Assembly (NCBI RefSeq): GCF_004010195.1
Contig: NC_057749.1
Location: forward strand, 7,027,416 to 7,091,415
Length of the DNA stretch: 64,000 nucleotides
Direction of reading: 5' to 3'
Source: Chiloscyllium plagiosum
Lineage: Eukaryota
Both the position numbers and the translations under genes were made by a program. Below are positions 2,636 to 57,010 of the stretch, one piece after another. The notes below the pieces were generated by a model. That model was given only the letters and a program-made list of their open reading frames with translations. It did no database searches and was not told the DNA's origin. Each line of letters opens with the position of its first letter. Position 1 is the stretch's first letter.

Positions 2636-2767
2636 GCTGGAGAAAGGTCCTGACCTGAAACGTTGATTCTCCTGCTTCTCTGATGCTGCCTGACCTGCTG
2701 TGCTTTTTCCAGTTCCACACTTTATTGACTCTGAACTTTCCAGCATCTGCAGTCCTCACTGTCTCCC
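2636..2767 (+). mobile_element. Penelope-like pLTR end (family A-related) with degenerate hammerhead
   Basis: ctggagaaaggtcctgacctgaaacgttgattctcctgc...gatgctgcctgacctgctg...ccagcatctgcagtcctcactgtctcc, homologous to 42421-42519. Confidence 0.75.
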
Positions 2768-8683: not shown

Positions 8684-8885
8684 TGATGAGATTGTCAACT
8701 AAATATGGATAGATAGGGTGGAATCATAGTATTTTTGTGAAAATGTTGGCCATTAGATGAATGCCAACGAAAACATTTGAAACATAATTAATTGTCTGGT
8801 GCTATCAATTCTTCGCAAAATCCACAGTTCACATGTTCTTGTGGAGGAGTGGTAGTGTCCCCACCTCTGAGCAGGAGCCAAGGTT

Positions 8886-9867
8886 AATGCCCTGTACAGC
8901 CGCAACATGACCTCCCAACTCCTGTACTCAATAAAGGAAAGCATACCAAACACCTTCTTCACTATCCTATCTACCTGTTACTCCACTTTCAAGGAGCTAT
9001 GAACCTGCACTCCAAGGTGTCTTTGTTCAGCAACACTCCCTAGGACCTTACCATTGAGTGTATAAGTCCTGCTAAGATTTGCTTTCCCAAAATGCAGCAC
9101 CTCACATTTATCTGAATTAAACTCCATCTGCCACTTCTCAGCCCATTGGCCCATCTGGTCCAGATCCTGTTGCAATCTGAGGTAACCCTCTTCGCTGTCC
9201 ACTACACCTCCAATTTTGGTGTCATCTGCAAACTTACTAACTGTACCTCTTATGCTNNNNNNNNNNTACTGCTCTGCCCTCATCAATCCTCTTTGTTACT
9301 TCATCAAAAAACTCAATCAAGTTTGAGAGACATGATTTCCCACGCACAACCATGTTGACTATCCCGAATCAGTCCTTGCCTTTCCAAATACATGTACATC
9401 CTGTCCCTCAGGATTCCCTCCAACAACTTGCCCACCACTGAGGTCAGGCTCACCGGTCTATAGTTCTCTGGCTTATCTTTACTGCCCCTCTTAAACAGTG
9501 GCACCACATTTGCCAACCTCTAGTCTTCCGGCAGCTCACCTGTAACTATCGATGATACAAATATCTCAGCAAGAGGCCCAGTAATCACTTCTCTAGCTTC
9601 CCACAGAGTTCTCAGGTACACCTGATCAGGTCCTGGGGATTTATCCACCTTTAACCGTTTCAAGACATCCAGCACTTCCTCCTCTGTAATCTGGACATTT
9701 TGCAAGATGTCACCATCTATTTCCCTACAGTCTATATCTTCCATATCCTTTCCCACAGTAAATACTGTTGCCAAATAGGACTAGATTGGGTTGGGATATC
9801 TGGTCGGCATGGACAGGTCGGACCGAAGGGTCTGTTTCCAAACTGTACATCTCCATGACTCTATGAC
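8886..9867 (-). mobile_element. Young CR1 LINE: ORF2 segment on - strand (8886-~9767) joined to a 3' UTR on + strand (~9768-9867)
   Basis: ORFs give KSPGPD, ANVVPLFKRGSKDKPENYRPVSLTSVVGKLLE and SKFADDTKIGGVVDSEEGYLRLQQDLD..WAEKWQMEFN..KCEVLHFG. The + strand tail is ...gaagggtctgtttcc...atgactctatga. Confidence 0.93.
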
Positions 9868-12059
9868 CTACTGTCCACCGGGTACGCAATACCGTCCGTC
9901 CCTCAATAGGTTGATTAGAAAATAAATACAAAAGGAAGGAGCACAATTCACAATGTTGTGCAAATTGAAGTGATGTTTGAAAAGATTTGTTGAAACCTTA
10001 AGCTCTAGAATTCTATCCTTAGATCTCTCTATTTTCCTTTAAAGGCTCCTAAATACCATAGACGAAGGTTTGCGCACCTGCCCTTATAGCTCTTTATGTG
10101 GCTCAGTGTTATATTTTGTCCGATAATACTCCTGTGAAGTATGCTTATTTACTTTGCTATAGGCGTCATAGAAATGCAATAATCCTGCCTGCAACTCAAC
10201 ACCAAGTGAAGATACACCAGCACAATAGCTGCTGTCTGTATAGTACCTGTAAAATGAAAAGCAAGTTGCCATTGAATACAATGGGCTAGAAAAGTGCAAG
10301 ATGCACTTAGGTTCAGGCCTGGCAGCTGGAACATTCCTGTTCTTTCACTGGCACGATGTTATGGGAACAATGCAAATTTGGCAAAGCGTTTCAGGGCTAT
10401 CAGGGTTTAATGTGAAGCAAAGTCTATAAACGGCAAGATGCAGCTACTTAGCTCGTGCAGTGTGCGGTGGAGCAGCTGCTCGGGTTAACCGTTAACTAAG
10501 GAACCAGATGGTGGCAGCGATCAATTTAACAGTCTCCCTTAGCTAAATCCCTTTCCTGATTTTCATTCCCTTTCCCATCACCTCTGCCTTGCAGCCAAAG
10601 CTCCCATGCACACCCTCCTCCTGAGAGAGAGAGTGTCCTGTCCTGTCCTGTCCACAATTGCGCCCTTCACCCCAGTCAGCAAAACATTAACCAAAAGTCT
10701 CCATCGTCCCAGAGGACCACGGGGCTGCTGTCTCTCATGGAGAGAGATGACTGGTGCTGAGAATAAACTGAGGGTGACCACGCCTCAGGCAAGGGGCAGC
10801 AGTGAAAGGTGAAAGTCAGATCCCATAGATGGAAAACTCGGAACAAAAAAGGAAATAAAACACACATTGGGACATGGGAGTTTCTCGATTATTTCATGTG
10901 AAAACTGTTCATTGATTTTTCTTTAAACAGGCATTATTTTTAAAAGCCTCTGAACTTAATGCACAGATGCTCAATATCTGAATGCAATTCAGACCCAAAA
11001 AGTCAGAGCCTAGAGATTAAAGAAATCAAGAGACAGGAAGGTACTGTAGAAAAATGACAGAGGTAGAAGATTAGCTATGTTCCTGTTGAATGGTAGAGCA
11101 GACGTGAGGGGCTGAATGGTCTACTTTCACTCCTATTCCTTGAGAACTGATACTTTTAGATCAACAAGTTCATCATAAAATTAAATTGTGCAGAGCCCAG
11201 GTGCAAACCTTCCATTTTCAAGGTTATTGCATTTCTGAATAAAGAGTGGATCAAATTTTCCCTCCAAAGGATGTTCTAGCTTGGAGCACTACAACAGCCT
11301 TCAGAACAAAGGGGTGCAGTGGCAAGATGGTCATGGTACTAAATATTCAAAGCCCTGGATTAAGATGCTGGAGATGTAAGTTCAAATCCCACTATGGAAT
11401 TCTAAATTTCATTTGATAAATCTGCAATTTGTAGAAGCAACTGGTATATGTCATCGAGACCTTATAACTAATGAACTGTTACTTAAAACCCATCTCGTTC
11501 ATGTGTGTCCTTTAAGGATGGAAGTGCCAAGACCATCAGGAACTGGAGTAGGCCGTTCAGCCCATCAAGTCTACCCAGCCATTCCTGGAGTTCATATCCA
11601 ATCTGATAATCCTCATCTCCACTTTCCTGCCTTTCCCCCTTGATTCCTGTCGTTGTTAAAGATCTGTCTATCTCAGCCTTGAATATAGTTATTGACATCT
11701 TTACCTGGGCTGAGCCAACACAGTGGGCAATCATGAAAAAGGTTGAGTAAGTCACTCATCTGTATTCAAAATGGCAACTCACCACCATCTCAAGCAGAAT
11801 TTGGGATAAACAATAAATGTTGGCCTTGCTATTGACACCCACATCCTACAAATGAATTTGCAAAGATTGCTCACCTGCAATATCACACAGCATTAGGAAT
11901 AACCTTTGATTCCCCCAAACTCAAAAGCTCTGAATGATTCTCCCACTTAAGTTGCTCAACAGGAGAGCTAACCCTCTTGAAAGGAATAGAATAATGTACT
12001 TGTAAAAGATCAGAAGAATGTGTTACATTTATAGTAGCAGTAGTGGTTAGGTGCTAGGA

Positions 12060-12396: not shown

Positions 12397-12805
12397 TCAT
12401 TAGAGAGAGGTAGTTGTTGGTGAATTTAACCTGAGGGTTACCACTCCCTCAATAGAGAGGGGTAGTTGTTGGTGAATTTAACCTGAGGGTTGCCACACCT
12501 TCATTAGAGAGGGGTATTTGTTGGTGAATTTAACCTGAGGGTTACCACACCATCATTAGAGAGGGGTAGTTGTTGGTGAATTTAACCTGAGGGTTACCAC
12601 ACCGTCATTAGAGAGGGATAGTTGTTGGTGAATTTAACCTGAGGGTTACCACACCGTCATTAGAGAGGGGTATTTGTTGGTGAATTTAACCTGAGGGTTA
12701 CCACACCATCATTAGAGAGGAGTAGTTGTTGGTGAATTTAACCTGAGGGTTACCACACCGTCATTAGAGAGGGGTAGTTGTTGGTGAATTTAATCTGAGA
12801 GTCAT
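12397..12805. repeat. Minisatellite, ~8 x 52 bp, expanded inside a SINE-B copy (12390-12915, - strand)
   Basis: Unit tcattagagaggggtagttgttggtgaatttaacctgagggttaccacaccg. The tagttgttgg anchor recurs at 12411, 12463, 12515, 12567, 12619, 12671, 12723 and 12775. Confidence 0.97.
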
Positions 12806-13736: not shown

Positions 13737-13868
13737 CTTGGAGAAAGTGAGGGCCGCAGATGCTGGAGAGTCAGAGTTGATAAAGTGTGGAGCTGGACAA
13801 AGCTCAGCAGGTCAGGCAGCATCCAAGGAGCAAGAGAGTCAACATTGTGGGCATAAGCCCTTCTTCAG
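13737..13868 (-). mobile_element. PLE family A pLTR end, single arm
   Basis: ggagaaagtgagggccgcagatgctggaga...gggcataagcccttcttcag. 13-bp TSD cagtgaagaatac at 13724-13736 and 13866-13878. Confidence 0.85.
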
Positions 13869-15273: not shown

Positions 15274-15445
15274 CAGATTGTGACTTCCTTGAGTGAGGGG
15301 AAATTGGATTCTATTACACTACCTGTAAAAGGGAAAGTTTCAGGACCAAGAATTTCTTTTACAGTTTCTATTCTTTTGAGGTGAGGAATGATGGAACTTG
15401 GAGTTTTTTTTCTCTCCTTTAGATGCCCGGTGTCAATAGACAGCA

Positions 15446-15640
15446 GGTCTGAGGAGGGCCCACTCAACCCGAAATGTTAAATCTGATTTCTCTCCACAGT
15501 TGTTGCCAGACCTGCAGAGCGTTTCCAGAAATTCCTGTTTTTGTGCCAATAGACAGCTGACGTTGGAGATCTGAAATATAAAAAAAACTGAATGTGCTGG
15601 AGAGACTCAACAGTTCTTGCAGCTTCTGTGGAGAAAGGAA
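15446..15640. mobile_element. Two PLE family C pLTR ends, convergent (15446-15545 +, 15553-15640 -)
   Basis: ctgaggagggcccactcaacccgaaatgtt-aaatctgatttctctccacagttgttgccagacctg, followed by an rc copy. Confidence 0.65.
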
Positions 15641-22035: not shown

Positions 22036-22398
22036 TACAGTTTTCCAGCATTGTGCGCTTTTGCATTAACATCAACTGTGCCTCAATGAGTAACACTCTC
22101 AACTAAGGCTGTGGGTGGAAGTTCTACTTTCGAAACTTGACCACAGAGTTTAGGCTGAGACATGCTGCATTGCTGGGAGTGCTCTTTTCGCGTGAAATGT
22201 TTAAACAGGGTCCTCCCCTGTGGAAGGATAGCACCCCTAGTTTGAAGGTGTTCTCCCCAGTATGTTAGTTATTCTTTTCCATCATCCAACATGACTGAAG
22301 CAAACATAGAGACTGCTGGAGAAGCTCAGCAGATCTGTGAAGAGAGAAGCAGAGTTAATGTCTTGAGTATGGTTTGACTTTTCCTCCGAACAAATCAC

Positions 22399-25659: not shown

Positions 25660-25915
25660 TGGGAGAAAGTGAGGATGCTGGAGATCAGAGTCGAGAGTCT
25701 GATGCTGGAAAAGCACAGCCTGTCAGGCAGCATTTGAGCAGCAGGAGAATCGACGTTTCGGGCATAAGCTCTTCATCAGGAATGAGGCTGGTTCCTGATT
25801 CCTCATTCCTGACCCTCATTCCAGATGAAGGGCTTACGTCGAGAATGTCGATTTTCCTGCTCCTCGGATGCTGCCTGACCGGCTGTGCTTTTCCAGCACC
25901 ACACTCTCGACTCTG
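25660..25915. mobile_element. Fold-back mini-PLE family A; hammerhead core on - strand at 25752-25779
   Basis: Inverted arms. TSD actctgtttttaagc at 25645-25659 and 25910-25924. rc core CTGATGA-A-GAGC-TTAT-GCCC-GAAA-CGTC. Confidence 0.88.
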
Positions 25916-26084
25916 TTTTTAAGCAGCAGCCTGTATTCTATTATCACGTCCTCGCTTTCAGACAGTGCTGGTTGTCAGTCTGCCATTAACACCGAATCCA
26001 GACCCATACTTTGTTTCTTCACACCTTTTGTCTTTTGTTCAAAGATGCCTTTGCTTTTTAATCTCTCCCTTATCACATGCCTCA

Positions 26085-26700: not shown

Positions 26701-26798
26701 TTGAATTCTCACCCTAACCGCATTAAACACATCACATTTCCATCTCTCTTTAGTTTTAAACAAGATTCAAATTCCATTCCCAATGTCAACCCTATTTT

Positions 26799-26912
26799 TA
26801 ATGAAGGGCTTTTGCCTGAAATGTTGACTCTCCTGCTGATGCTGCCTGACCTGCTTTTCCAGCACCACATTCTCAACTCTGATCTCCAGCATCTGCAGTC
26901 CTCACTTTCTCC
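26799..26912 (+). mobile_element. PLE family A pLTR end
   Basis: atgaagggcttttgcctgaaatgttgactctcctgctgatgctgcctgacctg...ctgatctccagcatctgcagtcctcactttctcc. Confidence 0.82.
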
Positions 26913-27378: not shown

Positions 27379-27589
27379 AGGAGGAGAAAGTGAGGACTGC
27401 AGATGCTGGAGATCAGAGCTGAAAATGTGTTGCTGGAAAAACGTAGCAGGTCAGGCAGCATCCAAGGAACAGGAGAATCGACGTTTCGGGCATTCCTGAA
27501 GAAGGGCTTATGCCCGGAACGTCGGTTCTCCTGTTCCTTGGATGCTGCCTGACCTGCTGCGCTTTTCCAGCAACACATTTTCATCTCTG
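27379..27589. mobile_element. Young fold-back mini-PLE family A inside a SINE-C copy (27095-27625, -)
   Basis: Near-perfect ~75-bp inverted arms. TSD atctctggattatta at 27364-27378 and 27583-27597. Core CTGAAGA-A-GGGC-TTAT-GCCC-GGAA-CGTC at 27496-27523. Confidence 0.92.
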
Positions 27590-29139
27590 GATTATTAGTC
27601 CCTTAACACTACCAATATGCCACCCTACACTGGGAGGTTCGAGGGCAGCAAGATCCCATAAACAGCATCGAGATATCGCCCAACCTGATTTTCCAGTCGA
27701 CAGATCCAGAGATAAATATTAGCCGGCATGCGAGGAAGAAAGATTTCCTGGTTCTTTTTCAAAATGGTGTCATGGGATTATTTACATTCTGTTTTCACTC
27801 ACAGGATGTAGGTGTCACTGGCTGGTCCAGCATTTATTGCTCATTGCCTGGTTGTCCTGGAGAACATGGTGGTGAACCACCTTCTTGATCTGCTGCAGTC
27901 CATTTGGGGTTCACCCACAAGTCATAAGTAATGGGAACAGGAGTAGGCCATTCTGCCCCTCGAGCCTGTTGCCTCGAGGGAGAGGAATTCCCCAGCTGGT
28001 GGCATTCACACGCATCTGCAGTCCTTGTCCTTGTAGATCGTGGGTTGATGAAACAGGTAGAAAAGGCCATCGTTTGATGCCTCATCAAAAAGACAGCATC
28101 TCTGACAGTGAAGCATTCCTTCAGTAGGGTGCCAGCCACGTGTATTCAGTTTGAAGAAATGGGACTTGAATCAGTGTCCTTGTCAGAGGTGAGAGTGCTG
28201 CCTATAAAGGTTGACTTTTAGCCTGCTCCAAACAGGCAAATCCAGCCAGCTGCTGATTACAAACTGCTGAGAATGTTACACGTCACCTTCGAGACCCAAG
28301 TCAAATGAATAACTTTCTGTTCCTTCTAAAAGGTGTATTGTAACCACAGTAAAATAACATACATACTGTTATTCAAGCTTGGAGTGAACAGCAAGTAATA
28401 CAAAAAATGCTTAAAGCATTTTTATTGCGTTAACACAGTTGCAGAAATATTGATGGACATAAGATGCAACTTAGTTGAAACTTATTGTAAGTTTTATACA
28501 TTTCTTGGAAGAAATAGTTAATAAACTTGAGGAGAATTATCAGTATAATATGCTATTAATTTCCTTTAATGAAACAATAGCCATATGGTTCTTAGTTGGC
28601 TGTAAAGTGGTTTGCGGCATATTAAAGTCATGGCAGACACTAAATAAATGCAAGTTTTGTTTTAAATGAATTTATATAGAGATACCTGCAGTGAATGAAA
28701 GAAACAAAAAAAACATAGTTCGAGATCTAATCAGAAGATTTATTTCACAATTTTTTTAAGATCTTGTAGAAATTTTGTTTGAAGAGCTTCTACTAACGAC
28801 ATGAACCTGCCTCCTTTTTCAGAACTCAGTAACAATTCTAACCCTCTTGCATTAGATTTGAACTTCAAACTCACCCCCTAAATTGAATTCACGGCCTATT
28901 TAGCCTTTCTGGACTATGCAAGCATTTTTATTCGGTGCAAGCTGCCTTCCAAGCCTACTCCATCTAATCCTAACAGTAGATCTTCTTTCCCATTCCCTGT
29001 CAAACTTCCCCTGAAAATAATCGCAACTCTTTTTTCTTTAGTTGCACATTGGACTTTCTTACCAGATATTGAGCAGTGATATTTCTCCTGAATTCCTTAT
29101 GATATTCCTTGCTGGCTTTTTAATATAGGTTGTTTTTCC

Positions 29140-29745
29140 CTTTATTCATTCATGGGATGACGGCATCGCTGGCCAGGCCAGCATTTATTGCCCAAAGGGC
29201 AGCTAAGAGTCAACCTATGGGTCTGGAGTCACATGTGGGCCGGACCAGGTAAGGATGGCAGTTTCCTTTCCTAAAGGGCATTAGTAAACCAGATGGATTT
29301 TTCCAACAATTAATAATAGATTCATGGTCATCATTAGACTCTTAATTCCAGATTTTTTTTTAAATTGAAAAATTTAAATTCTACCCAGGACATTAACTAG
29401 GTCTCTGGGTCTCATCCCAGATCCAACCCTCCAACTCAGCGCTGTCCTCTTGAACTGTCCTGTCTATTCATCTTCCTTCCCACCCATCCATCCATCCATT
29501 CCACCCTATCACCATCACTCCCGATCTGCATCTACCTATCGCCTTCCAAGCTACCTTCCCCCCAGCCCCATTTATCTCTCAGCCTCCTTCCCCACCCCAA
29601 AATACTTGATGAAGGACTTTTATCCGAAATGTCTCCTTTCCTGTTCCTTGGATGCTGCCTGACCCACTGTGCTTTTCCAGCGCCACACTTTTCATCTCTG
29701 GATTAACAGTCCAGTGACAATACCATTAGCCCATCACCTCCCCAC
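29140..29745 (-). mobile_element. SINE family C split by a PLE 3' fragment (29410-29700, +)
   Basis: SINE-C resumes at tctctggattaacagtcc. The insert has a C-rich PLE 3' UTR, then ttgatgaaggacttttatccgaaatgtc...ggatgctgcctgacc. Confidence 0.8.
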
Positions 29746-32339: not shown

Positions 32340-33140
32340 GGTAGTAGGGCTGCAGATTTGGAAGGTGTTGTTGAAGTAACCTCGAAATTTGAACCTCCTA
32401 TTTTGAAGTCTCCTTCCATCATCCAAAGATATGCTTCATGTATCTCAAATTGCAACAAGTCCCATTTCCCTCACACTCTTGTATTTGCTGACCTTCATTG
32501 GCTTGCTGTCCAACAAAGTTGTATTTCTAAGATTTTCATTTTTGCTTTCAAATCTCTTAGTGGCCCCAACTCTCCCTATCTCTATAATTACCATGATGTG
32601 GAGGTGCTGGTGTTGGACTGGGGTAGACAAAGTTAAAAATCACAGAACACCAGGTTATAGTCCAACAGGTTTATCTGGAAGTGCTAGCTTTTGAAGCACA
32701 GCTCCTTCATCAGGTAGCTAAAGAAGGAGCAGTGCTCTGCAAGCTTAGAACTTCCAAATAAACCTGTTGGACAATAACCTAGTGTTGTGTGATTTTTAAC
32801 TCTGTAATTACCTTCAGTCCCTCTGCAGCAACTTCACTGTCCTAATTCAGTAATTTTGCTTGAGAAACTCAGCAGGTATGACAGCATCTGTAAAGGGAAG
32901 GCAGAGTTAACGGTTCGGCTTCAGTATCCCTTCTTCCGAACACCTCTAATTCTGGCCTGTTGTGCCTTTCATTTTATAACTGCTCCACTCCACTGGAATT
33001 CTCTCCACACATCCCTCCACCTCTCCACTTTGCTTTTCACCTTTAAAACCTGAACCTTTGACTAAGTGGTTTGATGTTATGTCTTGTTTTATACTGTTCC
33101 TGTACATTGCTTTGGGATGCTTGATTCTGTAAGTGACACT
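32340..33140 (+). mobile_element. L2 LINE 3' remnant, interrupted by PLE-B (32593-32801) and a PLE-C end (~32855-32940)
   Basis: ORF 32247 ends ...HTLVFADLHWLAVQQ..ISKIFIFAFKSLSG..SPYL, the L2 'LHWLPV' C-terminal motif. Confidence 0.75.
32593..32801. mobile_element. Fold-back mini-PLE family B
   Basis: Homologous to 3603-3798. TSD ctctataattacc (32580-32592) / ctctgtaattacc (32800-32812). rc core CTGATGA-A-GGAGC-TGT-GCTTC-AAAA-GCTA at 32684-32713. Confidence 0.82.
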
Positions 33141-33473: not shown

Positions 33474-33596
33474 AGGAGAAAGTGAGGACCGCAGATGCTG
33501 GAGATCAGAGCTGAAAATGTGTTGCTGGAAAAGCGCAGCAGGTCAGGCAGCATCCAGGGAACAGGAGAATCGACGTTTCGGGCGTAAGCCCTTCTT
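33474..33596 (-). mobile_element. Young PLE family A pLTR end, single arm
   Basis: ggagaaagtgaggaccgcagatgctggagatcagagctgaaaatgtg...gaatcgacgtttcgggcgtaagcccttctt. Confidence 0.88.
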
Positions 33597-33969
33597 TATT
33601 TTGAAGAGGAAGGAATTTCCCCTGGTGGTGGTCATTATTTATTGCCGAAATAATATTGCTGGAAAGCGGGTCACCATTGCACTGATGTTTGTGGGAGATT
33701 GCTGTGTGAAAATTGGCAACTTCCTGCATTAAACTAGTGAGTATATTTCATTGACTGGGCTGGAATGGGAACATCTTGGAGAGGTGGAGTGTTTTGTGGA
33801 GGGAATTCCAGCATTTGGGACTGAAATGGAGCGGTTATAACAGGGAAAGCACAGAGGCCAGAATTAGAGGAATTCGGAAGTAGACTTGCTGAAATCGAAC
33901 CGTTCACTCTGCTTTCCTTCCACAAGCGCTGTCAAATCTGCTAAGTTTCTCCAGCAATTTCTGTTATTG

Positions 33970-34260
33970 TTACAGAATTAGGGGAGTGACGTTATTGCGG
34001 AGGGTCATAGATCTGAAGGTAATGACAGAGATATGGAGGGTTGGGGCCATTGAGGGATTTGAAAGCAAAGATGAAAATCTTAGAAGTAACACTTGTTGGA
34101 CAGGGAGCCAATGTAGATTAGCTAGCACAGGAGTGTTAGGGAAATGGTAGTTGGTGTGATTTGAGAAACATGCAGCATTTGTTCGGACAATGAAGAAGGA
34201 GATTTCAATAGGAGGTTCAAATTTCATGGCTCCTTCAAACCTGTAGCCCTACTCCCTGGA
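33970..34260 (-). mobile_element. L2 remnant, inverted paralogue of 32340-32850
   Basis: ORF 33970..34227(-) KFEPPIEISF...HFPNTPVLANLHWLPVQQ parallels KFEPPILKSP...HFPHTLVFADLHWLAVQQ. Confidence 0.75.
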
Positions 34261-36630: not shown

Positions 36631-36651
36631 AAATGATTTATTTAACTGCAA

Positions 36652-36845
36652 CCAAAAACAGAAATTGCTGGGAAAGTTCATCAGGCCTGGCAGCATCTGC
36701 GGAGAGAAATCAGAGGTAATGTTTTGGGTCCGGTGACCCTTCCTCAGCCTTCTCTTCACAGATGCTGCCAGATTTCTGAGCTTTTCCAGCAATGTTTTGA
36801 TTTTGTTACTGATTTACAGCATCCGTAGTTTTGTTTTGGCTTTTT
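36652..36845. mobile_element. Fold-back mini-PLE family C
   Basis: Inverted arms. rc core CTGAGGA-A-GGGTC-ACCG-GACCC-AAAA-CATT at ~36718-36747 (CpG-decayed). Confidence 0.75.
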
Positions 36846-37478: not shown

Positions 37479-39280
37479 AAACGTGGGGGCATAGGGATTG
37501 AGGTGGCGATTAACAAAAATGGCGATAAACACCGCATTGCTTCTCCATTTTGATAGCAATGTCATTATCCTATGTAGATGAGACAGTGTGTATCTGACAT
37601 GCAACCTTACTGCACACAGACCATATTCTGCGGTCACCCTTCATACCAACATAAACAGTTCAGGTCAGCATACCTCGAATCTGTGCATTGCTTAACAGAC
37701 AAAACTTTTCAACCAAGTCTGTTCCCGCTGTGTGAGGCAGCTGACATTGACTTGCAATAAGTAACAGAGTAATTGGTGAGTGTGCAGTTTCAGAGTGGGG
37801 AGTGCACTTTCTTCCCCCCCCACCCTCCCCCCGGCTTAGGCACCAAGTTTAATAGACGATCATTTATATGCATTTGCAGTTTGAACACATTTAATTAGAT
37901 GTAATGATCCCATTGTTGCTGGGGCAATGACACATGGAAAATGAGATGACACAAGATTTAAATTAACTGTCAGTCAGCCTGTCTGGCAGCAAGAGTGCCT
38001 GAAAAAGAGTCAGCGCTCGCTATGCATGTTCTGCATCCAACCAGTTAATCCAAGGCAGCGCTGGATTACAGCCTGTGATCAGATCTCTGCCTTCAACAGA
38101 TGGGCCGGACAGAATCATCGCTCTTCGGGGCTGTTTAAAATTCATTCATCACAAAATCAAGGTTAAAGAGATTTTGTCGCCCTTGCTTAACCCCTTCCTG
38201 ACTTAGACACAGCGTTCTGACAAACTCCTAGCACACATGCACAACAAACACACATAATGCCTCTAGTGACAGTGAAAATCCCCATTAGTTAACAACTTAT
38301 TGTCAATTACAGATGGAAAGTGACCGATATATATTCTCGTCCTTGATTTCAAATCTCTCCCTGGGTCTTGCCCTTCCAACCTCTGTTACCTCCTCTAGCC
38401 CCTCCAAGATTTTTGCACCCTCCAGTTGGAATTTCTTTGCATCCTCAATTTCAGTCACCTCATAATGATGATACTGCCTTTAGATGCTTAGAATCAAGGT
38501 CTAGACTTATATCCCTTTCTGCTCCCAGAAGATGTTCCTTAACGCTCACCTCATTGCCCAAGCCCTTGGTCACCTGTCCCTATAACTCTCCACGAGGTTC
38601 CATGTCAAGTTTCGCCTGGTGTTGGCTCCTACAAAATGTCCAGGAATGTTAAATGCATTACTTTAATCCCCGGTCAGGGAGGGTCAAATTACAAATCAGA
38701 ATTTATAGGTTTTTTTGCTGGAAACGAAAAGCGCCGGATTCGAAGCCCGATATATAAATGCCCAACATATTCCTATTTCTGTTCTTCCCTAATCTATAAG
38801 ACTGGATTCAATGGAATCGATTGGGTACACTTTCATTCATTCACATGGGAGGGACAAACCTGGCCTTTAACTGCAGTGAAATCATGAAATGTTTGTTCTT
38901 CACAGGACGCGAGCACTGCTGAGTAAGCAGTACATGTTTCCTATTCCTATTTGCCCTCAGAAAGGTGATGGTAAGAGGCATTTTCAGATGGCTGCACTCC
39001 CTGTGGTTTAGGTATCTGGTAGATGGAGCCAATTCCAGGATCTTGGCTCAGTGAAGGAACAGCAATATTGTTCCAAGGCAGGATGGTGTGCAGCTTGGAA
39101 GGGAACTCGAAGGTGATGGCTTCCGCTCTCCTTGACTTTTCAGGTGGGAGAGGTCAAAGGTTGAGAAGGTGCTGTCAAAGCAGCTGGCCAGTTGCTTCAG
39201 TGCATCTTGTGTGTGGTTCTACTGCTGACAGTGTGCCAACGTCAGAGGGAATAAGCATGGTGGTGCATGGAACCAATGGA

Positions 39281-39415
39281 ATTCTGAGGGGGTGTCACTG
39301 GACCCGAAATTATAACTCTGATTTCTCTTCACAGTTGTTACCAGACCTGCTGAGCTTTTCCAGCAGCTTCTGTTTTTGTTTCTGACTTACAGCATCTGCA
39401 GTTCTTTCGCTTTTT
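39281..39415 (+). mobile_element. PLE family C pLTR end
   Basis: attctgagggggtgtcactggacccgaaattataactctgatttctcttcacag...ccagacctgctgagcttttccagc. Confidence 0.7.
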
Positions 39416-41071
39416 ACTTAGCAGGGTGCTTTGTCTGCAATGCATAGTGTGTTACGACCACACACACAGCAACCGGGTGATGTTCACTCTACAGTATCAA
39501 ACAGCAATGAACTGAAGATGCTAGAAATCCGAAACAAAAACAGAAACTCAGCAGGTCTGGCAGCATCTATGGACATAGATGTACATCAAACAAATGAACT
39601 GCACTGTAATGTTTGGCAGCATCTGTGGAGAGAAAGCGCTGGACTGGAAACCTTAACTCTGTTTTTCTTCTCTCTCTCTCTCTCCATAGATGCTGCCAAA
39701 TGTTACAGTACAGTTAGCTTGTTAGATGTACACCAGGCAAATACATAAGGAGGCTATTCAGTCCGTCCTGCCCGTGTCAGCCCTTCTGCAGCTCATTTCA
39801 TCCATTCCCAAGAATGCTTTGCCTTTCAATTCCTTTCTGAAAGTTACTGTTAAATCTGCTTTGACACACTTTTATGCAGATTGTAGCTTGCCATGTCACA
39901 GAAGGAAGATCTACTTATTTCCCTCGTGGTTTTCCTTTAGCATCGGGTGTAAAGCGAAGGAAAATGAGGTCAGGATATAGAACTGGGGGCCAATTTCTCA
40001 CCATCCCCTCTTAGAAGCAAAAGGGGCTTTTATAATTCACGACTGAGTGACAGGCCTGGATACTGTCAAAAAGATTACGTTCGCTGAATAATGCGGGGCA
40101 CAAACATACCTAGTCTGTGGGCACATTCAGGTTATTTTCACCTAAATACAGGTTGAGGCAGAAGCATCTGTCTGTATGAGATATTTGAGATGTAGCGCAG
40201 AACTGCCTCTGCCTCCTGTGGGCTTCTCTCCTCCAGCGTTTTAACTTGAGAAGTTCAAAGTCTCTTTTTGGATCATCTCTGAGGCCCTGCATTTCTCTGG
40301 GACCACATTGTTTTTGATGATTACTGCCTGCTACAGCCAGAAGCCTTTTGGTTTAACCTTTTAGTTTCTGGATTTGTTCTCGCACCCTCATTGCTGTGCC
40401 TGGCAACACGTGCGCTGACATTCCAGACTCCAGGCCTGCAGATTGCCTCATTTCCCTTTCCAAGTGGAAGCCACACTCTGGTACTGAAAGAATGCTGCAC
40501 TGGACGAGGTGCTATCAGTTTGGATGGGGTGTTAAATAAAGGTGAGGCAGTGGGGCAGAGTGACTTCGTTCCAGGGTCAAAGTAGTCTACCCGGCTTAGG
40601 GGGGGAAGGATGACAGAGGAGGGAGGAGTAAAGGGTTTGCTGTGGAGTCAACAATAATACATGACCATGGAACCATTCACTTGGGGAAATCTCCCCAGTC
40701 CCCGTTTGGATAGTCCTTTCCCACTTGATTTTCTTACGCTGTAACAAAAGAAGAGAAAGGGGCTGGACTGGTAACATGAGCGCATCACTAGTATCACTGA
40801 AAGTTGATGTTTGTCTAATATGGCCAACTTATCAGTCCACAGAACACTTCAGGGTCATTCAAAAGAAGCCATTAAGTGAAGCAGTCCAATATTGTTTGCA
40901 AGGATAATGACAATTTTTGACCTTTGTGGATCTATGGAGGGTGAGGTAGATTTTTAATCAGCAGAGGTTATGGTGGAGCAGACAAGACTGTACAATTGAG
41001 GAGGGGAAAGTGAGGACTGCAGATGCTGGAGATCAGAGCTGAAAATGTGTTGCTGGAAAAGCGCAGCAGGC

Positions 41072-41269
41072 CATCATGTCCTTGGTGGAGTGGGAGGGGG
41101 AGTTGAAGTGTTGAGCCACGGGGTGGTTGGGTTGGTTGGTGTGGGTGTCCCAGAGGTGTTCTCTGAAACGTTCCGCAAGTAGGCGGCCTGTCTCCCCAAT
41201 ATAGAGGAGGCCACATCGGCTGCAGCGGATGCAATAGATGATGTGTGTGGAGGTGCAGGTGAATTTGTG
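41072..41269 (-). pseudogene. GIY-YIG endonuclease fragment of the PLE ORF
   Basis: Open 66 codons: HKFTCTSTHIIYCIRCSRCGLLYIGETGRLLAERFREHLWDTHTNQPNHPVAQHFNSPSHSTKDMM (IIY..CxxC..YIGET..R..EH..HFN). Confidence 0.92.
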
Positions 41270-42264
41270 NNNNNNNNNNNNNNNNNNNNNNNNNNNNNNN
41301 NNNNNNNNNNNNNNNNNNNNNNNNNNNNNNNNNNNNNNNNNNNNNNNNNNNNNNNNNNNNNNNNNNNNNNNNNNNNNNNNNNNNNNNNNNNNNNNNNNNN
41401 NNNNNNNNNNNNNNNNNNNNNNNNNNNNNNNNNNNNNNNNNNNNNNNNNNNNNNNNNNNNNNNNNNNNNNNNNNNNNNNNNNNNNNNNNNNNNNNNNNNN
41501 NNNNNNNNNNNNNNNNNNNNNNNNNNNNNNNNNNNNNNNNNNNNNNNNNNNNNNNNNNNNNNNNNNNNNNNNNNNNNNNNNNNNNNNNNNNNNNNNNNNN
41601 NNNNNNNNNNNNNNNNNNNNNNNNNNNNNNNNNNNNNNNNNNNNNNNNNNNNNNNNNNNNNNNNNNNNNNNNNNNNNNNNNNNNNNNNNNNNNNNNNNNN
41701 NNNNNNNNNNNNNNNNNNNNNNNNNNNNNNNNNNNNNNNNNNNNNNNNNNNNNNNNNNNNNNNNNNNNNNNNNNNNNNNNNNNNNNNNNNNNNNNNNNNN
41801 NNNNNNNNNNNNNNNNNNNNNNNNNNNNNNNNNNNNNNNNNNNNNNNNNNNNNNNNNNNNNNNNNNNNNNNNNNNNNNNNNNNNNNNNNNNNNNNNNNNN
41901 NNNNNNNNNNNNNNNNNNNNNNNNNNNNNNNNNNNNNNNNNNNNNNNNNNNNNNNNNNNNNNNNNNNNNNNNNNNNNNNNNNNNNNNNNNNNNNNNNNNN
42001 NNNNNNNNNNNNNNNNNNNNNNNNNNNNNNNNNNNNNNNNNNNNNNNNNNNNNNNNNNNNNNNNNNNNNNNNNNNNNNNNNNNNNNNNNNNNNNNNNNNN
42101 NNNNNNNNNNNNNNNNNNNNNNNNNNNNNNNNNNNNNNNNNNNNNNNNNNNNNNNNNNNNNNNNNNNNNNNNNNNNNNNNNNNNNNNNNNNNNNNNNNNN
42201 NNNNNNNNNNNNNNNNNNNNNNNNNNNNNNNNNNNNNNNNNNNNNNNNNNNNNNNNNNNNNNNN
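41270..42264. other. Assembly gap (995 N)
   Basis: N run. Confidence 1.
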
Positions 42265-42421
42265 TCAGTCAAATCCCTTGAACTCAGCACCGCCTTCCTA
42301 ACCTGCAATCTTCTTCCTGACCTCTCACCTTGACCTCCTTCCACCCATCGCATTTCCAACGCCCCTCCCCCAAGTCCCTCCTCCCTACCTTTTATCTTAG
42401 CCTGCTGGACAGACTTTCCTC

Positions 42422-42457
42422 ATTCCTGAAGAAGGGCTCGTGCCCGAAACGTCGATT
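42422..42457 (+). ncRNA. Minimal hammerhead ribozyme motif (PLE-associated, loop-less palindromic stem III)
   Basis: attc-CTGAAGA-A-GGGC-TCGT-GCCC-GAAA-C|G-T-C-gatt. All catalytic core nucleotides are present; predicted cleavage after C42453. Stem I is only partly paired. Confidence 0.72.
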
Positions 42458-42566
42458 TTCCTGCTCCTTGGATGCTGCCTGACCTGCTGCACTTTTCCAG
42501 CAACACATTTTCAGCTCTGTACAATTGAGGACACAATCAGATCTTATTGCGTGGTGGAGCAGACGT

Positions 42567-44868: not shown

Positions 44869-44970
44869 GGTTCCGAAGAAGATCATAACGGACTCAAAAC
44901 GTTAACTCTGTTTCTCTGTCAGCAGACACTGCCAAACCGGCTGTATTTCTCCAGCATTGTCTGTGTTTGT
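44869..44970 (+). mobile_element. PLE family C pLTR end, old
   Basis: ggttccgaagaagatcataacggactcaaaacgttaactctgtttctct...ctccagcattgtctgtg. Confidence 0.6.
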
Positions 44971-53060: not shown

Positions 53061-54220
53061 TCAGGGAAATGAGCACAATGGAGAAATAAAAGCAGATGGG
53101 CTTCAGATTGGTTCCACAGGTCAGCGCAACATCGAGGGCCAAAGGGGCCTGTACTGCGCTGTAATATTCTATATTTAAATGAAAGAAGAGACCGTTTTCA
53201 TGATTTTCTAACAGTAGCGGTACTCAATTCACGTTGAGGAAGATTAAATAAATATTTTGAAGAAAGGTGTTGCTGAAGTACAGAGAAATAGAGGAGAAAT
53301 AGGATTAGAGAACTCTACAGTGGCTATAAAATTGCACAAGAACGTTTTGGTTCGATTTGCTTTTTCTTTCTACAGCATAATTCCTCAAAACAGACTGTAC
53401 GCCGACTAGGGACCGGAATGAATGAACGGCTAGAACACAAAGCCTTGTGAGCGAATCCCTCTCTTAAATACGAGGTCAAGGTCATTGTGTGCAAGTCTCT
53501 GGTGGACTAGAGTTAACAATATTACATTGTTGCCTGCACCAAATGGGAATTCTAACAAAGTGCAATGAAATTTCAGAAAAAAAATGCATTCACTCTCCCT
53601 TGCCTCATTGAAAGGAGTCTTTCCTTCAAATTCTTCGATTTAAAAGATGGAAAGCAATTCAGAAATCAAACCCAAGGAAGCAATGCTACCCTGAAGGCTC
53701 AGGGTGTAAATGCACAGCACAGTAGAGCATTAACAAAGGAGCTTTCAAATTCCATGTAGAAAGAAAAGAAAGACTTGCATGCATATAGTGTTTCTCACCT
53801 CCTTAGTATGTTTCAATGCGTTTAGGAAGTTTGTCTTTCACTCAATTTTTTTCCTCAGGAGTTGGGTGTCACATGACATTTGCTGCCAATCCCTAATTGC
53901 CCTTGAACTGAATGGCGAGCAAGGCCATTGCAGGGGGCAGTTCAGTGTCGTCAATGTTACTGCGAATCTGGAATCACACGCAGGCCAGGCCAGGTAAGAA
54001 TGGCAGATTTCCTTCCCTAATGGACATTACTGAACCAGTTCAGTTTTTACGACAATGATTTTCTTTTGTTAATTCATGGGGTGTGGTCTTCACTAGCTGG
54101 GTGGATCCCAGTTGCCCTTGAGAAGGTGCGGTGAGCTGCCTTCTGCGAATGATGCAGTCTATGTGCTGCAGATTGACCCACAATACCATTAGTGGGGGGA
54201 GTTCCAGGACATTATTTGAT

Positions 54221-54598: not shown

Positions 54599-54711
54599 GA
54601 TCAGCAACGTTGAGATCAGCTTTCAATATCTAACCTTGTATTAATTAGTTGAAATTGCTTTCTAATGGCTGTTGCAGTGAGATTTGAAGCCATATCTCTG
54701 TATGGATTCAG

Positions 54712-54843
54712 GATTCCTGAAGAAGGGCTTATGCCCGAAACATCGATTCTCCTGCTCCTCGAATGCTGCCTGACCTGCTGTGTTTTTCCAGCACCACATT
54801 TTTCAACTCTAGTACTCCAGCATCTGCAGTCCTCACTTTCTCC
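54712..54843 (+). mobile_element. PLE family A pLTR end with hammerhead core at 54717-54744
   Basis: attc-CTGAAGA-A-GGGC-TTAT-GCCC-GAAA-CATC...ccagcatctgcagtcctcactttctcc. Confidence 0.88.
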
Positions 54844-54985
54844 CATTTGGATAACTAACCAAGTTATATTACCATATAATCTTCAAAAACATGTCGTGAC
54901 TGTTGGAGAATGCATAAAGGAAACTCCCCCAAACAGCTATAGAGAGATAACCTGTTTGTTTAGTCATGTTGGCTGTGAGATAAAT

Positions 54986-55303
54986 GTTGAAAAATGTATT
55001 GCTGGAAAAGCGCAGCAGGTCAGGCAGCATCCAAGGAGCAGGCATAAGCCCTTCTTCAGGAATGAGGAAGGTGTGCCAAGCAGGCTAAGATAAAAGGTAG
55101 GGAGGAGGGACTTGGGGGAGGGGCGTTGGGAATGCGATAGGTGGAAGGAGATTAAGGAGGTCGGGAAGAAGATTGCAGGTCAAGAAGGTGGTGCTGAGTC
55201 CGAGGGTTGGGACTGAGATAAGGTGGGGGGAGGGGAAATGAGGAAGCTGGAGAAATCTGCATTCATCCCTTGTGGTTGGAGGGTTCCTAGGCGGAAGATG
55301 AGG
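54986..55303 (-). mobile_element. PLE arm: GIY-YIG C-terminus, 3' UTR and pLTR, running into a gap
   Basis: rc from 55302 reads LIFRLGTLQPQGMNADFSSFLISPPPT...*; downstream sequence is homologous to 42265-42515 with the GAAACGTC segment deleted. Confidence 0.85.
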
Positions 55304-56168
55304 NNNNNNNNNNNNNNNNNNNNNNNNNNNNNNNNNNNNNNNNNNNNNNNNNNNNNNNNNNNNNNNNNNNNNNNNNNNNNNNNNNNNNNNNNNNNNNNNN
55401 NNNNNNNNNNNNNNNNNNNNNNNNNNNNNNNNNNNNNNNNNNNNNNNNNNNNNNNNNNNNNNNNNNNNNNNNNNNNNNNNNNNNNNNNNNNNNNNNNNNN
55501 NNNNNNNNNNNNNNNNNNNNNNNNNNNNNNNNNNNNNNNNNNNNNNNNNNNNNNNNNNNNNNNNNNNNNNNNNNNNNNNNNNNNNNNNNNNNNNNNNNNN
55601 NNNNNNNNNNNNNNNNNNNNNNNNNNNNNNNNNNNNNNNNNNNNNNNNNNNNNNNNNNNNNNNNNNNNNNNNNNNNNNNNNNNNNNNNNNNNNNNNNNNN
55701 NNNNNNNNNNNNNNNNNNNNNNNNNNNNNNNNNNNNNNNNNNNNNNNNNNNNNNNNNNNNNNNNNNNNNNNNNNNNNNNNNNNNNNNNNNNNNNNNNNNN
55801 NNNNNNNNNNNNNNNNNNNNNNNNNNNNNNNNNNNNNNNNNNNNNNNNNNNNNNNNNNNNNNNNNNNNNNNNNNNNNNNNNNNNNNNNNNNNNNNNNNNN
55901 NNNNNNNNNNNNNNNNNNNNNNNNNNNNNNNNNNNNNNNNNNNNNNNNNNNNNNNNNNNNNNNNNNNNNNNNNNNNNNNNNNNNNNNNNNNNNNNNNNNN
56001 NNNNNNNNNNNNNNNNNNNNNNNNNNNNNNNNNNNNNNNNNNNNNNNNNNNNNNNNNNNNNNNNNNNNNNNNNNNNNNNNNNNNNNNNNNNNNNNNNNNN
56101 NNNNNNNNNNNNNNNNNNNNNNNNNNNNNNNNNNNNNNNNNNNNNNNNNNNNNNNNNNNNNNNNNNNN
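55304..56168. other. Assembly gap (865 N)
   Basis: N run. Confidence 1.
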
Positions 56169-56568
56169 TTCCATACCCAGCAACATTCTGATAAATCTCT
56201 CCTCAACTCTCTCTAGCTTGATAATACCGTTCCTGTAACTGGACAACAAGAATGGTGGCACAATGGTTAGCACTGCTGCCTCGCAGCGCCAGAGACCCGG
56301 GTTCAATTCCCGCCTCAGGTGACTGACTGTGTGGAGTTTGCACATTCTCCCCGTGTCTGCGTGGGTTTCCTCCAGGTGCTCCGGTTTCTTCCCACAGTCC
56401 AAAGATGTGCAGGTTAGGTGAATTGGCCGTGCTAAATTGCCCATAGAGTTGGGTGCATTAGTCAGGGTAAATATGGGGAATGTGCCAGGGTGGGTTACTC
56501 TTGGGAGGGTCGGTATGGACTACTTGGGCTGGAGGGCCTGTTTCCACACTGTGGGGAATCTAATCTAA
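56169..56568 (+). repeat. CR1/HE1 junction duplicated from 36135-36412, followed by the rest of an HE1 copy
   Basis: 56169-56446 matches 36135-36412 without indels and with ~4 substitutions; the HE1 3' parts then differ. Confidence 0.9.
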
Positions 56569-57010
56569 TAAAATAATAGAGTATTTAATTGCTAAACAGT
56601 AGCTATTCCAACATAGTAACATCCCATAAACACACCCTCAGCAAAGGTAAATTTAGTAAAATAGACTGCCCCACATTCAATTCTCGCAGCCAGGAGGAAA
56701 AACATCAAGAGAAAACTCTGAGAGAGAGAGAAGCAGGGAGAGATGTACTGCAGTTTCTAAACCCAGCTTCACAAACCCAGCAACAGCTGCTACTGATAAC
56801 CCAAAACTAAAAGTCCTGGTTCTGTGGGAGCTTGACATCACCCATTTAGGCCACTTATATTGTTGCAACTTGAAAACAAAAATCCAAGCCAGGAAACAAG
56901 CTGTTTACTTTACCGGCTCTGAGCAGACTGATCGGCACCTCAGTCTCAACCCTTCTTCATCAAACAAAACCAGGACAAAATACACTTCTTAAAGCCACAG
57001 TATTGTTACA
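56569..57010 (-). mobile_element. LTR fragment (5' part) related to the solo LTR at 34560-35173
   Basis: rc begins TGTAACAATAC; rc acctttgctgagggtgtgtttatgggatgtt resembles accttttgtgccatgtgggtgtttatggggattgtt at ~34892. Confidence 0.6.

Follow-up and report, generated by a model that had tools for sequence, protein, structure and literature searches.

In a 64,000-nt stretch of the Chiloscyllium plagiosum genome (NC_057749.1, GCF_004010195.1; hereafter the window, with 62,130 non-N bases) we identified repeats of three families, A, B and C, which are very probably the dead insertion products of endonuclease-bearing Penelope-like elements (PLEs) of this elasmobranch genome; comparison of the copies supports the short motif that they carry as the minimal type I hammerhead of such elements, present in several families. 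As read from the copies, the source elements consisted of an ORF with reverse transcriptase (RT) and GIY-YIG domains, a stop, a spacer of ~120 nt, a hammerhead of ~28 nt (CUGANGA, an extra A, a stem II of 4–5 bp, GAAA, a loop-less 4-nt palindrome for helix III, and H17) and two alternative 3' ends, the first 54–67 nt after the hammerhead and the second after an optional tail of 31–40 nt. Minimal hammerheads in the pseudo-LTRs of metazoan PLEs were described in 2014 by Cervera and de la Pena (PMC4209133), the reported hosts being fishes, the coelacanth, Xenopus and reptiles. Unlike these published hosts the host here is an elasmobranch, and we found no description in the literature of hammerhead-bearing PLE families of sharks or rays. 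The shark families are thus additions to a kind known since 2014 from other animals: they add cartilaginous fishes, in which two or more types of unit are unrelated to one another, to the hosts of hammerhead-bearing PLEs, and leave knowledge of the ribozyme itself unchanged. The motif was recognisable with sequence as the sole input.

The focal copy reads CTGAAGA-A-GGGC-TCGT-GCCC-GAAA-CGTC at 42426-42453 on the plus strand, and was the top-scoring match (48.2 bits) to a model (R1) built from families A and C. Its parts, all on the plus strand, are:

42265-42417 (+): portion of the focal copy that precedes the hammerhead, 3' UTR-like, entering an N run (41270-42264)
42418-42425 (+): possible 5' strand of helix I (cctcattc), pairing poorly with 42454-42461
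42426-42453 (+): focal minimal hammerhead, with CUGAAGA core, extra A, stem II GGGC/GCCC, loop TCGT, GAAA, ACGU palindrome and C17
42454-42519 (+): 66 nt between the predicted cut and the unit's short 3' end, with a box conserved between A and C in alignments

Cleavage is predicted after C42453. The copy has no tail after its short end (12/30 matches to the tail), and its upstream part is 87% identical over 166 nt to the spacer of a second long A copy, at 55216-55055 on the minus strand.

A strict descriptor of the minimal hammerhead (core, 0–1 extra nt, a G-C-closed stem II with a minimum of 4 bp, GAAA, a palindromic NN, then U and an H that is not G) matched the window only once, at 42426, and had no match in 300 dinucleotide shuffles; when one stem mismatch was allowed 25779 (-) was added, against a shuffle mean of 0.003 (300 dinucleotide shuffles). 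A relaxed descriptor (R at G12, a CpG-decayed palindrome, one stem mismatch), which was drawn up after the copies were known and thus favours them, identified seven sites (three in A, two in B and two in C) against a shuffle mean of 0.05 and a maximum of 1. The loose core CTGANGA-N11-21-GAAA gave nine matches versus 3.19 expected, with none of 100 shuffles reaching nine; only four of these nine fall in the families, the others being at 6049, 23180, 24965 (-), 39512 and 53836 (-). The earlier note on this DNA had proposed a search with hammerhead models or a descriptor. None of the hammerhead families of Rfam matched 42380-42520 (141 nt), even at E-values up to 10, and no Rfam family reached its gathering score anywhere in the window. 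The Rfam hammerhead models need a helix III hairpin.

A search with an nhmmer profile of the A and C units identified 27 fragments (2,259 bp), 18 of which reach the hammerhead region; family B, beyond this count, contributes three motif-bearing arms and one truncated arm. Together the motif-bearing copies of A, B and C number ~21 in the 62,130 non-N bases, or ~1 per 3 kb. R1 did not recover family B, giving its copies only 6.3 and 7.3 bits. A doubtful extra R1 match at 32905-32942 (-) was accepted, as it was backed by nhmmer, and another at 53840-53862 (-) was rejected, having no stem II. Searches with short strings gave 0 matches for a 22-nt B string in metagenome contigs and 0 for a 20-nt A string in viral contigs; 48 metagenome loci matching a 19-nt A string were dismissed as chance matches, none having CTGANGA upstream or the family box downstream. 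The motif strings listed in the earlier note were found as described at all ten coordinates, and further copies in the window, among them two C-like units that it lacked, are as follows:

25662-25918 (both strands): A head-to-head pair; (-) arm 25784-25662 tailed, (+) arm 25817-25918 with short end; a hammerhead on each arm, 25752-25779 (-) and 25822-25849 (+)
27380-27589 (both strands): A head-to-head pair; (-) arm 27492-27380 tailed and 5'-truncated in loop II, (+) arm 27490-27589 with full motif 27496-27523 and short end
54710-54843 (+): single A unit, tailed; hammerhead 54717-54744, with ACAT replacing ACGT
33475-33599 (-): single A unit, tailed; hammerhead 33572-33599, with decayed 5' core (ATAAAGA)
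13740-13868 (-): single A unit, tailed; 13-nt target duplication overlapping the first 3 nt of the motif
2633-2766 (+): A-like unit, tailed; divergent stem II AGGT/ACCT
26795-26912 (+): single A unit, tailed; decayed motif 26798-26825
29602-29699 (+): single A unit, short end; decayed motif 29606-29633
54982-55303 (-): second long A copy, short end, adjoining an N run (55304-56168); hammerhead from 55059, its 3' half deleted (R1 E-value 0.059)
3602-3798 (both strands): B head-to-head pair; (-) arm with ~40-nt tail, truncated in stem II; (+) arm with motif 3715-3743, AAAA at the GAAA position, and short end
32590-32801 (both strands): B head-to-head pair, its junction unlike that of the other B pair; (-) arm 32713-32590 with motif and tail, (+) arm 32718-32801 with decayed motif and short end
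36651-36845 (both strands): C head-to-head pair; (-) arm with motif 36718-36747 and short end, (+) arm 36743-36845 tailed and 5'-truncated
15445-15544 (+): single C unit, starting 4 nt before CTGA, short end; 11-nt target duplication
39280-39412 (+): single C unit, tailed; decayed motif 39284-39313
44869-44970 (+): single C unit; decayed motif 44873-44903, with the best helix I of the window (6 bp)
32854-32944 (-): C-like unit, absent from the earlier note, found by R1 and nhmmer
22300-22391 (-): strongly decayed C-like unit, absent from the earlier note, found by nhmmer

The C-like unit at 32854-32944 (-) and the stretch 33868-33971 (+) lie inside copies of a larger repeat and have their flanks in common. 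Of the three otherwise different families that had been proposed B is indeed distinct, sharing only the motif and the insertion architecture with the other two, whereas A and C align over the whole ~100-nt unit, have the tail in common, and are homologous throughout and hence not independent families.

The link to PLEs comes from one insertion that holds both coding sequence and the focal copy, and from a second long A copy. The further features of the insertion are:

40988-41002: left copy of a 15-nt target duplication (ctgtacaattgagga), read from the sequence
41003-41073 (-): 3' part of an A unit, tailed (tail 28/30; nhmmer profile positions 64-105)
41075-41269 (-): GIY-YIG endonuclease fragment (65 aa) of a PLE ORF, ending at the N run
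42517-42531: right copy of the 15-nt duplication, ctgtacaattgagga, its first 3 nt overlapping the short end of the unit

The GIY-YIG fragment (41269-41075 on the minus strand) matches Pfam PF01541 with an E-value of 1.1e-5 (26.0 bits versus a cut-off of 22.6), and is 91% identical to P0001 and 88% identical to residues 346-409 of P0002, both from Chiloscyllium punctatum. P0002 and the skate protein P0007, which are among the proteins nearest to the fragment, have an RVT_1 domain in addition to GIY-YIG (P0007, E-value 5.6e-19), and an RT followed by a C-terminal GIY-YIG is the arrangement given for the Neptune clade by Craig et al. 2021 (PMC8557442), as is the C-x4-C-x2-C in the linker preceding the endonuclease of P0002, a mark of Neptune and Nematis in the same source; the window's own linker lies in the N run. 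The part of an A unit at 41003-41073 (-) is joined directly to the GIY-YIG fragment at a rearranged junction rather than by the normal spacer, the junction (41073/41075) being an internal deletion or template switch, and the whole insertion (41000-42519) is bounded by the 15-nt duplication. The normal arrangement is seen in the copy 55303-54982 (-), where the C-terminal end of the ORF (55302-55243), matching the C-termini of P0007 (9e-8) and P0002 (1e-5), is followed by an in-frame stop (55182-55180), a 120-nt spacer and then the hammerhead. No full-length copy is present in the window, and no PLE-type RT could be read there; the copies are interrupted by N runs, and the sole RVT_1 match is a LINE. 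A Pfam scan of the longer stop-to-stop ORFs (103, from ~85 aa up, out of the 169 with 75 aa or more) identified only a LINE-type RVT_1 fragment, and missed the GIY-YIG fragment because the N run leaves that ORF a length of only 65 aa. A CR1/L2-like LINE remnant is present in the window, and the A and C nhmmer profile has no match in it.

These results bear on whether the repeats are PLE-derived at all, or are instead MITEs (B being hairpin-like) or LINE-dependent SINEs whose likeness to a hammerhead is due to chance, an explanation we consider highly improbable. It draws on the B pairs, which are inverted repeats of 158–240 bp with short flanking duplications and have no linked PLE coding sequence in the window, and on the presence of the LINE remnant. 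However, the two B pairs differ in their internal junction and have unequal arms, and so are not copies of one palindromic master, and each has an extension of ~40 nt on one arm only. In addition, the relaxed motif is expected by chance 0.05 times per window, A units are contiguous with GIY-YIG and ORF-end sequence, and the LINE remnant, as noted, is without a profile match. The assignment made in the earlier note, to the minimal type I hammerheads of PLEs, is thus backed by the GIY-YIG fragment, the ORF end, the tails, the inverted pairs and the target duplications.

At 42426-42453 the core (C3-U4-G5-A6-N7-G8-A9 and G12-A13-A14) is intact and in type I order; the other copies are decayed, and one intact copy in ~21 is the outcome expected of neutral decay. 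The nucleotide between A9 and 10.1 is A in 12 and G in 2 of the 14 aligned A and C copies and A in 3/3 B arms, and G10.1-C11.1 closes helix II in 12/17 copies. Stem II had been described as changing in sequence while keeping its pairing, and this was confirmed over 17 copies, in which it is 87.1% paired (12.8–51.8% in slid controls) and 4/4 pairs are changed on both sides in some copy; the variants are GGGC/GCCC (A), AGGT/ACCT (the copy at 2637), GGGTC/GACCC (C) and, by eye, GGAGC/GCTCC (B), such that the covariation amounts to three or four stem variants and few independent events. For the whole structure the covariation score was 0.284 versus 0.183 when shuffled, with 0/500 shuffles reaching the observed value, and RNAalifold predicted stem II unaided and did not predict helix I. 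Helix III is loop-less and reads ACGT or AGCT wherever it is undecayed, as had been claimed, and is accompanied by U16.1 and an H17 that is never G; the earlier statement that the cleavage triplet is never NUG likewise holds, the copies having GTC, GTT or CTA.

Helix I is 64.7% paired over the 17 copies, with one of its four pairs mostly unpaired: it reaches 5–6 bp in the C copies 44873 and 39284, has three pairs with a mismatch in A, and has none in B, where the gctc flank previously assigned to stem I proved to be sequence of the inverted partner copy and not of the element. The G12 position is A in all three B arms, that is, in the two copies for which AAAA had been noted and in a third; this could be the result of CpG decay of C11.1-G12 or of a dead source element. 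The suggestion that many defects are CpG transitions fared less well, as these account for only 9/45 deviations in the A hammerheads (25% per CpG site versus 14.6% at others). Among non-CpG cells of family A 10/100 differ in the core versus 25/140 in the rest, so the core is not clearly better kept, and in the alignment of A with C the downstream box is conserved as well as the core.

The motif in the window shows every feature listed beyond the descriptor by Cervera and de la Pena 2014 (PMC4209133): as reported there for metazoan PLEs, it is of type I without a helix III loop and with palindromic 15.2-16.2, has the extra nucleotide A9/10.1 and the G10.1-C11.1 pair, occurs in several covarying families per genome, and is found mostly in solitary copies, with some opposite-strand pairs 100–700 bp apart. 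It differs in that the shark stem II has 4–5 bp, versus the 7–8 bp given for Schistosoma, and in the weakness of the family A helix I relative to the reported 4–5 bp; the same source describes minimal hammerheads as having low activity in vitro (PMC4209133).

The insertions are alike in architecture. The optional tail of 31–40 nt occurs in all three families (8/13 A copies, 2/4 B arms and 2/7 C copies), and in 6/6 head-to-head pairs the tail is confined to one of the two arms, which would happen with a probability of at most 1.6% if the arms were independent. In 3/3 unequal small pairs the tailed arm is also the truncated arm; a fragmentary seventh pair is located at 39580-39732. Target-site duplications, likewise seen in all three families, are 9–15 nt overall, and 9–13 nt around three single units. 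The tail, the inverted pairs with one tailed arm and the target duplications are insertion marks specific to PLEs; in accounts of other PLEs a tail of 30–40 bp is often present at one insertion end only, and the Neptune clade is described with a hammerhead near the 3' end, partial tandems, inverted 5'-truncated partners and a one-end tail (PMC8557442).

A functional comparison can be made with Poseidon of Anolis carolinensis (PAc), characterized by Frangieh et al. 2024 (PMC11167929). The hammerhead end is GAAACGUC in both. In PAc, two internal sites past the cut serve as starts of reverse transcription, the optional tail of 30–40 bp corresponds to the interval that separates them, and both strands of the target are cut and then extended, in keeping with the head-to-head pairs. 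There are also differences from what is reported for PAc: its starts lie 85–92 nt past the cut, as opposed to 3' ends 54–67 and 94–100 nt past it here; its ORF starts inside stem II, whereas here the preceding ORF has already ended 120 nt before the motif, and an in-frame stop is present at the unit's short end; and its starts are said to be non-homologous to the target, whereas in two A pairs and the focal insertion 3–7 nt of the short end are also present in the target (PMC11167929). We also considered whether the ORF might begin, as in PAc, within the motif, at an ATG that the A units have in loop II; this was rejected, as the reading frame from that ATG ends at the short end after 26 codons, and B and C lack an ATG at this place.

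By analogy with the Anolis enzyme, the protein of the shark elements may have nicked both target strands and begun reverse transcription within the RNA at either of two sites; two internal starts and nicks in both strands would together account for the alternative 3' ends, for the head-to-head arrangement of pairs and for the duplicated targets. The decayed copies would then be a record of natural insertions that fits the picture of PLE integration obtained in vitro, with its two internal starts, its use of both target strands and its uncut RNA template. With regard to the last of these, nine 5'-truncated A and C fragments start at profile positions 13, 24, 24, 24, 44, 46, 47, 48 and 64, and no copy starts at the predicted cut (~position 37); the insertions in the window were probably copied from uncut RNA.

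Most copies are units of 100–135 bp starting 0–8 nt upstream of CUGA, and of the 18 A and C copies extending to the hammerhead, 16 end no more than 8 nt upstream of the motif. Based on these starts, the templates of the short units would have been RNAs with their 5' end at the 5' edge of the hammerhead, e.g., transcripts started in the pseudo-LTR; why most copies should end exactly at this edge is the question that they raise. It is possible, though doubtful, that the short units form a non-autonomous element of their own, either SINE-like or the solitary monomer of a non-LTR retrozyme, which borrowed the PLE enzyme, instead of being by-products of autonomous PLE copies. The units are discrete and have target duplications, and their ends at the hammerhead edge would suit such an element; they also resemble the vertebrate non-LTR retrozymes, non-coding hammerhead units which a preprint by Li, Clavereau and Pollet 2026 (10.64898/2026.07.22.740005) relates to, and derives from, PLE pseudo-LTRs, and for which it reports one cartilaginous fish and the existence of solitary monomers. 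However, those retrozymes are defined by arrays in which two or more complete motifs follow one another in tandem (10.64898/2026.07.22.740005), and there is no such array of units in the window, where none of the ten listed Tandem Repeats Finder rows overlaps a unit. Moreover, two or three A copies extend upstream into the PLE spacer and ORF, which makes the unit the natural 3' end of the autonomous element as well, and at the 64-kb scale the units of a borrowed-enzyme element overlap with what PLE by-products would look like.

Returning to the units as products of the PLEs themselves, the form of the motif suggests that the active fold would be reached only by pairing of the palindrome with a second copy, in a dimer or a tandem transcript, and that such a dimer would cut after GUC, GUU or CUA. 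For the focal RNA, folding predicted -18.9 kcal/mol for the hammerhead-type dimer and -25.9 kcal/mol for another, more stable intermolecular duplex. It is unlikely, in our estimation, that the repeats are PLEs whose hammerhead-like module is not self-cleaving, and provides instead a structured 5' terminus, a site for protein binding or, through the palindrome, a means of linking dimers, with the letters of the catalytic core kept for that role or inherited from an older active ribozyme. The insertions from uncut RNA, with no 5' end at the cut, would accord with this, as would the start of the units at the hammerhead 5' edge in all three families, the pair junctions, which fall within or beside the motif, the weak helix I and the A at G12 in 3/3 B arms. 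For PAc, core mutants of the hammerhead are reported to leave insertion in vitro unchanged and no RNA-seq reads to end at the cut (PMC11167929), and the retrozyme preprint reports cleavage for 1/9 vertebrate constructs (10.64898/2026.07.22.740005). On the other hand, the retained letters are the catalytic ones (C3-A9, G12-A14, U16.1 and an H17 that is never G), which neither a simple hairpin nor a binding site would require across families with different stems. Furthermore, fungal PLE hammerheads are reported to cleave well and the Schistosoma dimer weakly (PMC4209133), and the Anolis motif to cleave, its C3 and G8 mutants behaving as expected (PMC11167929).

We also entertain, as a long shot, a more specific version in which the hammerhead is the 5' terminus of a discrete template RNA of 100–135 nt and its palindromic helix III links two RNAs instead of cutting them, the dimer then being copied by a dimeric PLE enzyme from both nicked strands, with one near and one far start site. 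This would explain why units start at helix I, why junctions fall in or beside the motif and why there is one tailed arm per pair, this being the truncated one in the unequal small pairs.

The earlier note had read the short motif at the 5' edge of the repeat units of families A, B and C as the minimal hammerhead of a Penelope-like element (PLE), and this reading is correct, as a GIY-YIG fragment and an ORF end are each joined to A units. The fragment (41269-41075, minus strand) encodes 65 residues whose GIY-YIG score exceeds the Pfam cut-off and which resemble two proteins of Chiloscyllium punctatum (91% and 88% identity) and two of Leucoraja erinacea (63-65%); the C. punctatum protein P0002 contains RT motifs, a cysteine linker and GIY-YIG, and the L. 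erinacea protein P0007 contains RVT_1 (E 5.6e-19) and then GIY-YIG. Immediately next to it, in the same orientation, lies the 3' portion of a tailed A unit (the tail is an optional 3' extension). At the junction, 41073/41074, endonuclease coding sequence is fused to the A unit at approximately its position 64 and continues in frame up to the short-end stop; the junction arose either by internal deletion or by template switching while copying. This arm and the focal copy (the A unit with its motif at 42426-42453) face each other across an N run and have an identical 15 nt outside both, so that 41000-42519 is a single insertion. A second long A copy, 55303-54982(-), retains coding sequence for the C-terminal 20 residues of this protein family (P0007 C-terminus, E 9e-8), after which come a stop, 120 nt and the motif; the spacer of this copy and the focal copy share 87% identity. 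The motif is placed after the ORF, and the copied RNAs were uncut. N runs 41270-42264 (995 bases) and 55304-56168 (865 bases) lie at the 5' side of both long A copies, the former in the middle of a head-to-head PLE pair, and such inverted repeats may have broken the assembly there. The sole RVT_1 match in the window is to a CR1/L2-type LINE with no relation to the units; this remnant, 7900-10000(-), has FADD in its RT and a conserved C-terminal domain, and is interrupted by frameshifts and, at 9257-9266, by a 10-N gap.

The described motif strings were present at all ten listed sites when re-read in the window, which is CpG-poor, vertebrate-type DNA (CpG observed/expected = 0.30) with three N runs; no Rfam family matched in the window. 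The focal motif, CTGAAGA-A-GGGC-TCGT-GCCC-GAAA-CGTC, was the sole match to a strict minimal-hammerhead descriptor (mean 0 over 300 shuffles), and allowing one stem mismatch gave two sites (mean 0.003 over 300 shuffles); thus one copy is intact and the others are decayed, and one intact in ~21 copies at ~15% divergence is the expectation under neutral decay. A relaxed descriptor, designed once the copies had been seen, matched three A, two B and two C copies vs 0.05 expected. The loose core pattern had 9 matches vs 3.19 expected, a count reached in 0/100 shuffles, with only four of the nine being family members.

Self-BLAST and an nhmmer profile identified 27 A/C-type fragments in the window (2,259 bp in total), 18 of which reach the motif; the motif is also present in three of the four family B arms. 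A and C had been described as otherwise different, but they can be aligned along the whole unit and have a post-cut box and the tail in common, which makes them diverged relatives and not independent families; B shares with them the motif and nothing beyond it. A covariance model seeded with 14 A and C copies recovered its seeds plus one new C-like copy, and B copies scored merely 6.3 and 7.3 bits.

Structure measures from 17 model-aligned copies; the alignment is structure-fitted and hence biased in favour of the structure.
Stem II: 87.1% paired
Stem II pairs altered on both sides: 4/4
Helix I: 64.7% paired
Whole structure: 75.4% paired; slid-partner control 12.8-51.8%
Whole structure, covariation score: 0.284 vs shuffled 0.183; attained in 0/500 shuffles

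As the earlier note had proposed, stem II changes sequence while pairing is kept, with compensatory changes at 4/4 pairs; there are just three or four stem variants, and therefore few independent compensatory events. RNAalifold on a plain MAFFT alignment also found stem II, and no other structure. Of the proposed stem I covariation, a good helix I was seen in some C copies only, and the B flank belongs to the partner copy. CpG transitions proved less frequent than suggested (9/45 deviations in family A), and the family A core is not clearly better kept than other positions, as expected of dead copies. G12 lies directly 3' of C11.1 in every case and is therefore part of a CpG; it is A in all three motif-bearing B arms, for which the CpG position or an inactive B source element could be responsible. 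In the focal copy, GAAACGUCGAUUUUC (42446-42460) is nearly self-complementary around UCGA, and predicted focal dimers pair around this UCGA, burying the core and cut site; by predicted folding energy, the hammerhead-type dimer is less stable than an alternative duplex. Most other copies have gattctcc instead, weakening UCGA-centred pairing.

In every family the units end at one of two 3' positions separated by 31-40 nt, without and with the tail.

3' ends of the units, measured from the predicted cut.
Family A: short end 66 nt, long end ~97 nt past the cut
Family B: short end ~54 nt, long end ~94 nt past the cut
Family C: short end 66-67 nt, long end ~100 nt past the cut

Each of six head-to-head pairs consists of one tailed and one untailed arm, and in the small pairs with unequal arms the truncated arm is the tailed one (3/3); a seventh, fragmentary pair (39580-39732) has like ends on both sides. 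Target duplications of 9-15 nt surround pairs and single units. The duplicated target of the focal insertion, like that of two A pairs, opens with (a)ctctg or ctg, the final letters of the unit's short form, so that target and template have 3-7 nt in common at the putative near start site.

Target duplications sharing letters with the short end.
25647-25661/25910-25924: A pair
27365-27379/27583-27597: A pair
40988-41002/42517-42531: focal insertion

Sixteen of the 18 A/C copies reaching the motif end ≤8 nt upstream of it, and no A/C fragment in the window starts at the predicted cut. The loop or 3' half of stem II, where three of nine 5'-truncated A/C fragments start (21694, 27492(-), 29860(-)), as does one B arm (left arm of the pair near 3716), is a second preferred stopping point beside the motif 5' edge. 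We suggest that the two 3' ends would represent two start sites of reverse transcription, that head-to-head pairs would result from priming on both target strands, and that short units would derive from RNAs starting at the hammerhead edge; the motif is predicted to cut only with two copies paired via ACGU or AGCU.

The shark elements have the PLE characteristics open to test, and the motif has every sequence feature of the minimal hammerhead described in 2014 (PMC4209133), save a solid helix I; the same study reports low activity for minimal PLE hammerheads. Like the shark units, published PLEs have inverted truncated partners and, frequently, a tail at one end (PMC8557442); the shark units also fit the integration scheme of two internal start sites with cutting and extension of both strands (PMC11167929). 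In Anolis, hammerhead cleavage is dispensable for in-vitro insertion (PMC11167929), and the published data report no target homology at the start site, whereas the putative near site of the shark units shares 3-7 nt. Retrozyme arrays were rejected, no unit in tandem arrays being found in the window, as was a MITE identity for the units. According to a 2026 preprint (10.64898/2026.07.22.740005), one cartilaginous fish has both PLEs and retrozymes, and the preprint's supplements may name hammerhead families; the literature searched, a scope outside Repbase, Dfam and these supplements, yielded no description of elasmobranch hammerhead families. The shark elements are additional members of the already described hammerhead-bearing PLE type.

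Several units are associated with other repeats. The C-like units 32854-32944(-) and 33868-33971(+) have upstream and downstream flanks in common, including an apparent 9-nt duplication, and are evidently a single insertion carried along in the copying of a larger repeat, one copy of which later received the B pair 32590-32801. On the 3' side of A copies 27496 and 29606, the flanking sequences (27578-27622, 29689-29733) are 80% alike, reflecting either the same site in another repeat family or old duplicates. The hammerhead units are far outnumbered by a ~320-bp repeat that occurs at 56169-56570 and in no fewer than 30 further places (at least 30 copies in 64 kb, 64-92% identity); 1324-1608 is a tandem duplication (period 143) of a related tRNA-like stretch, and 12397-12799 holds a 52-bp unit in tandem (7.8 copies, 94% matches).
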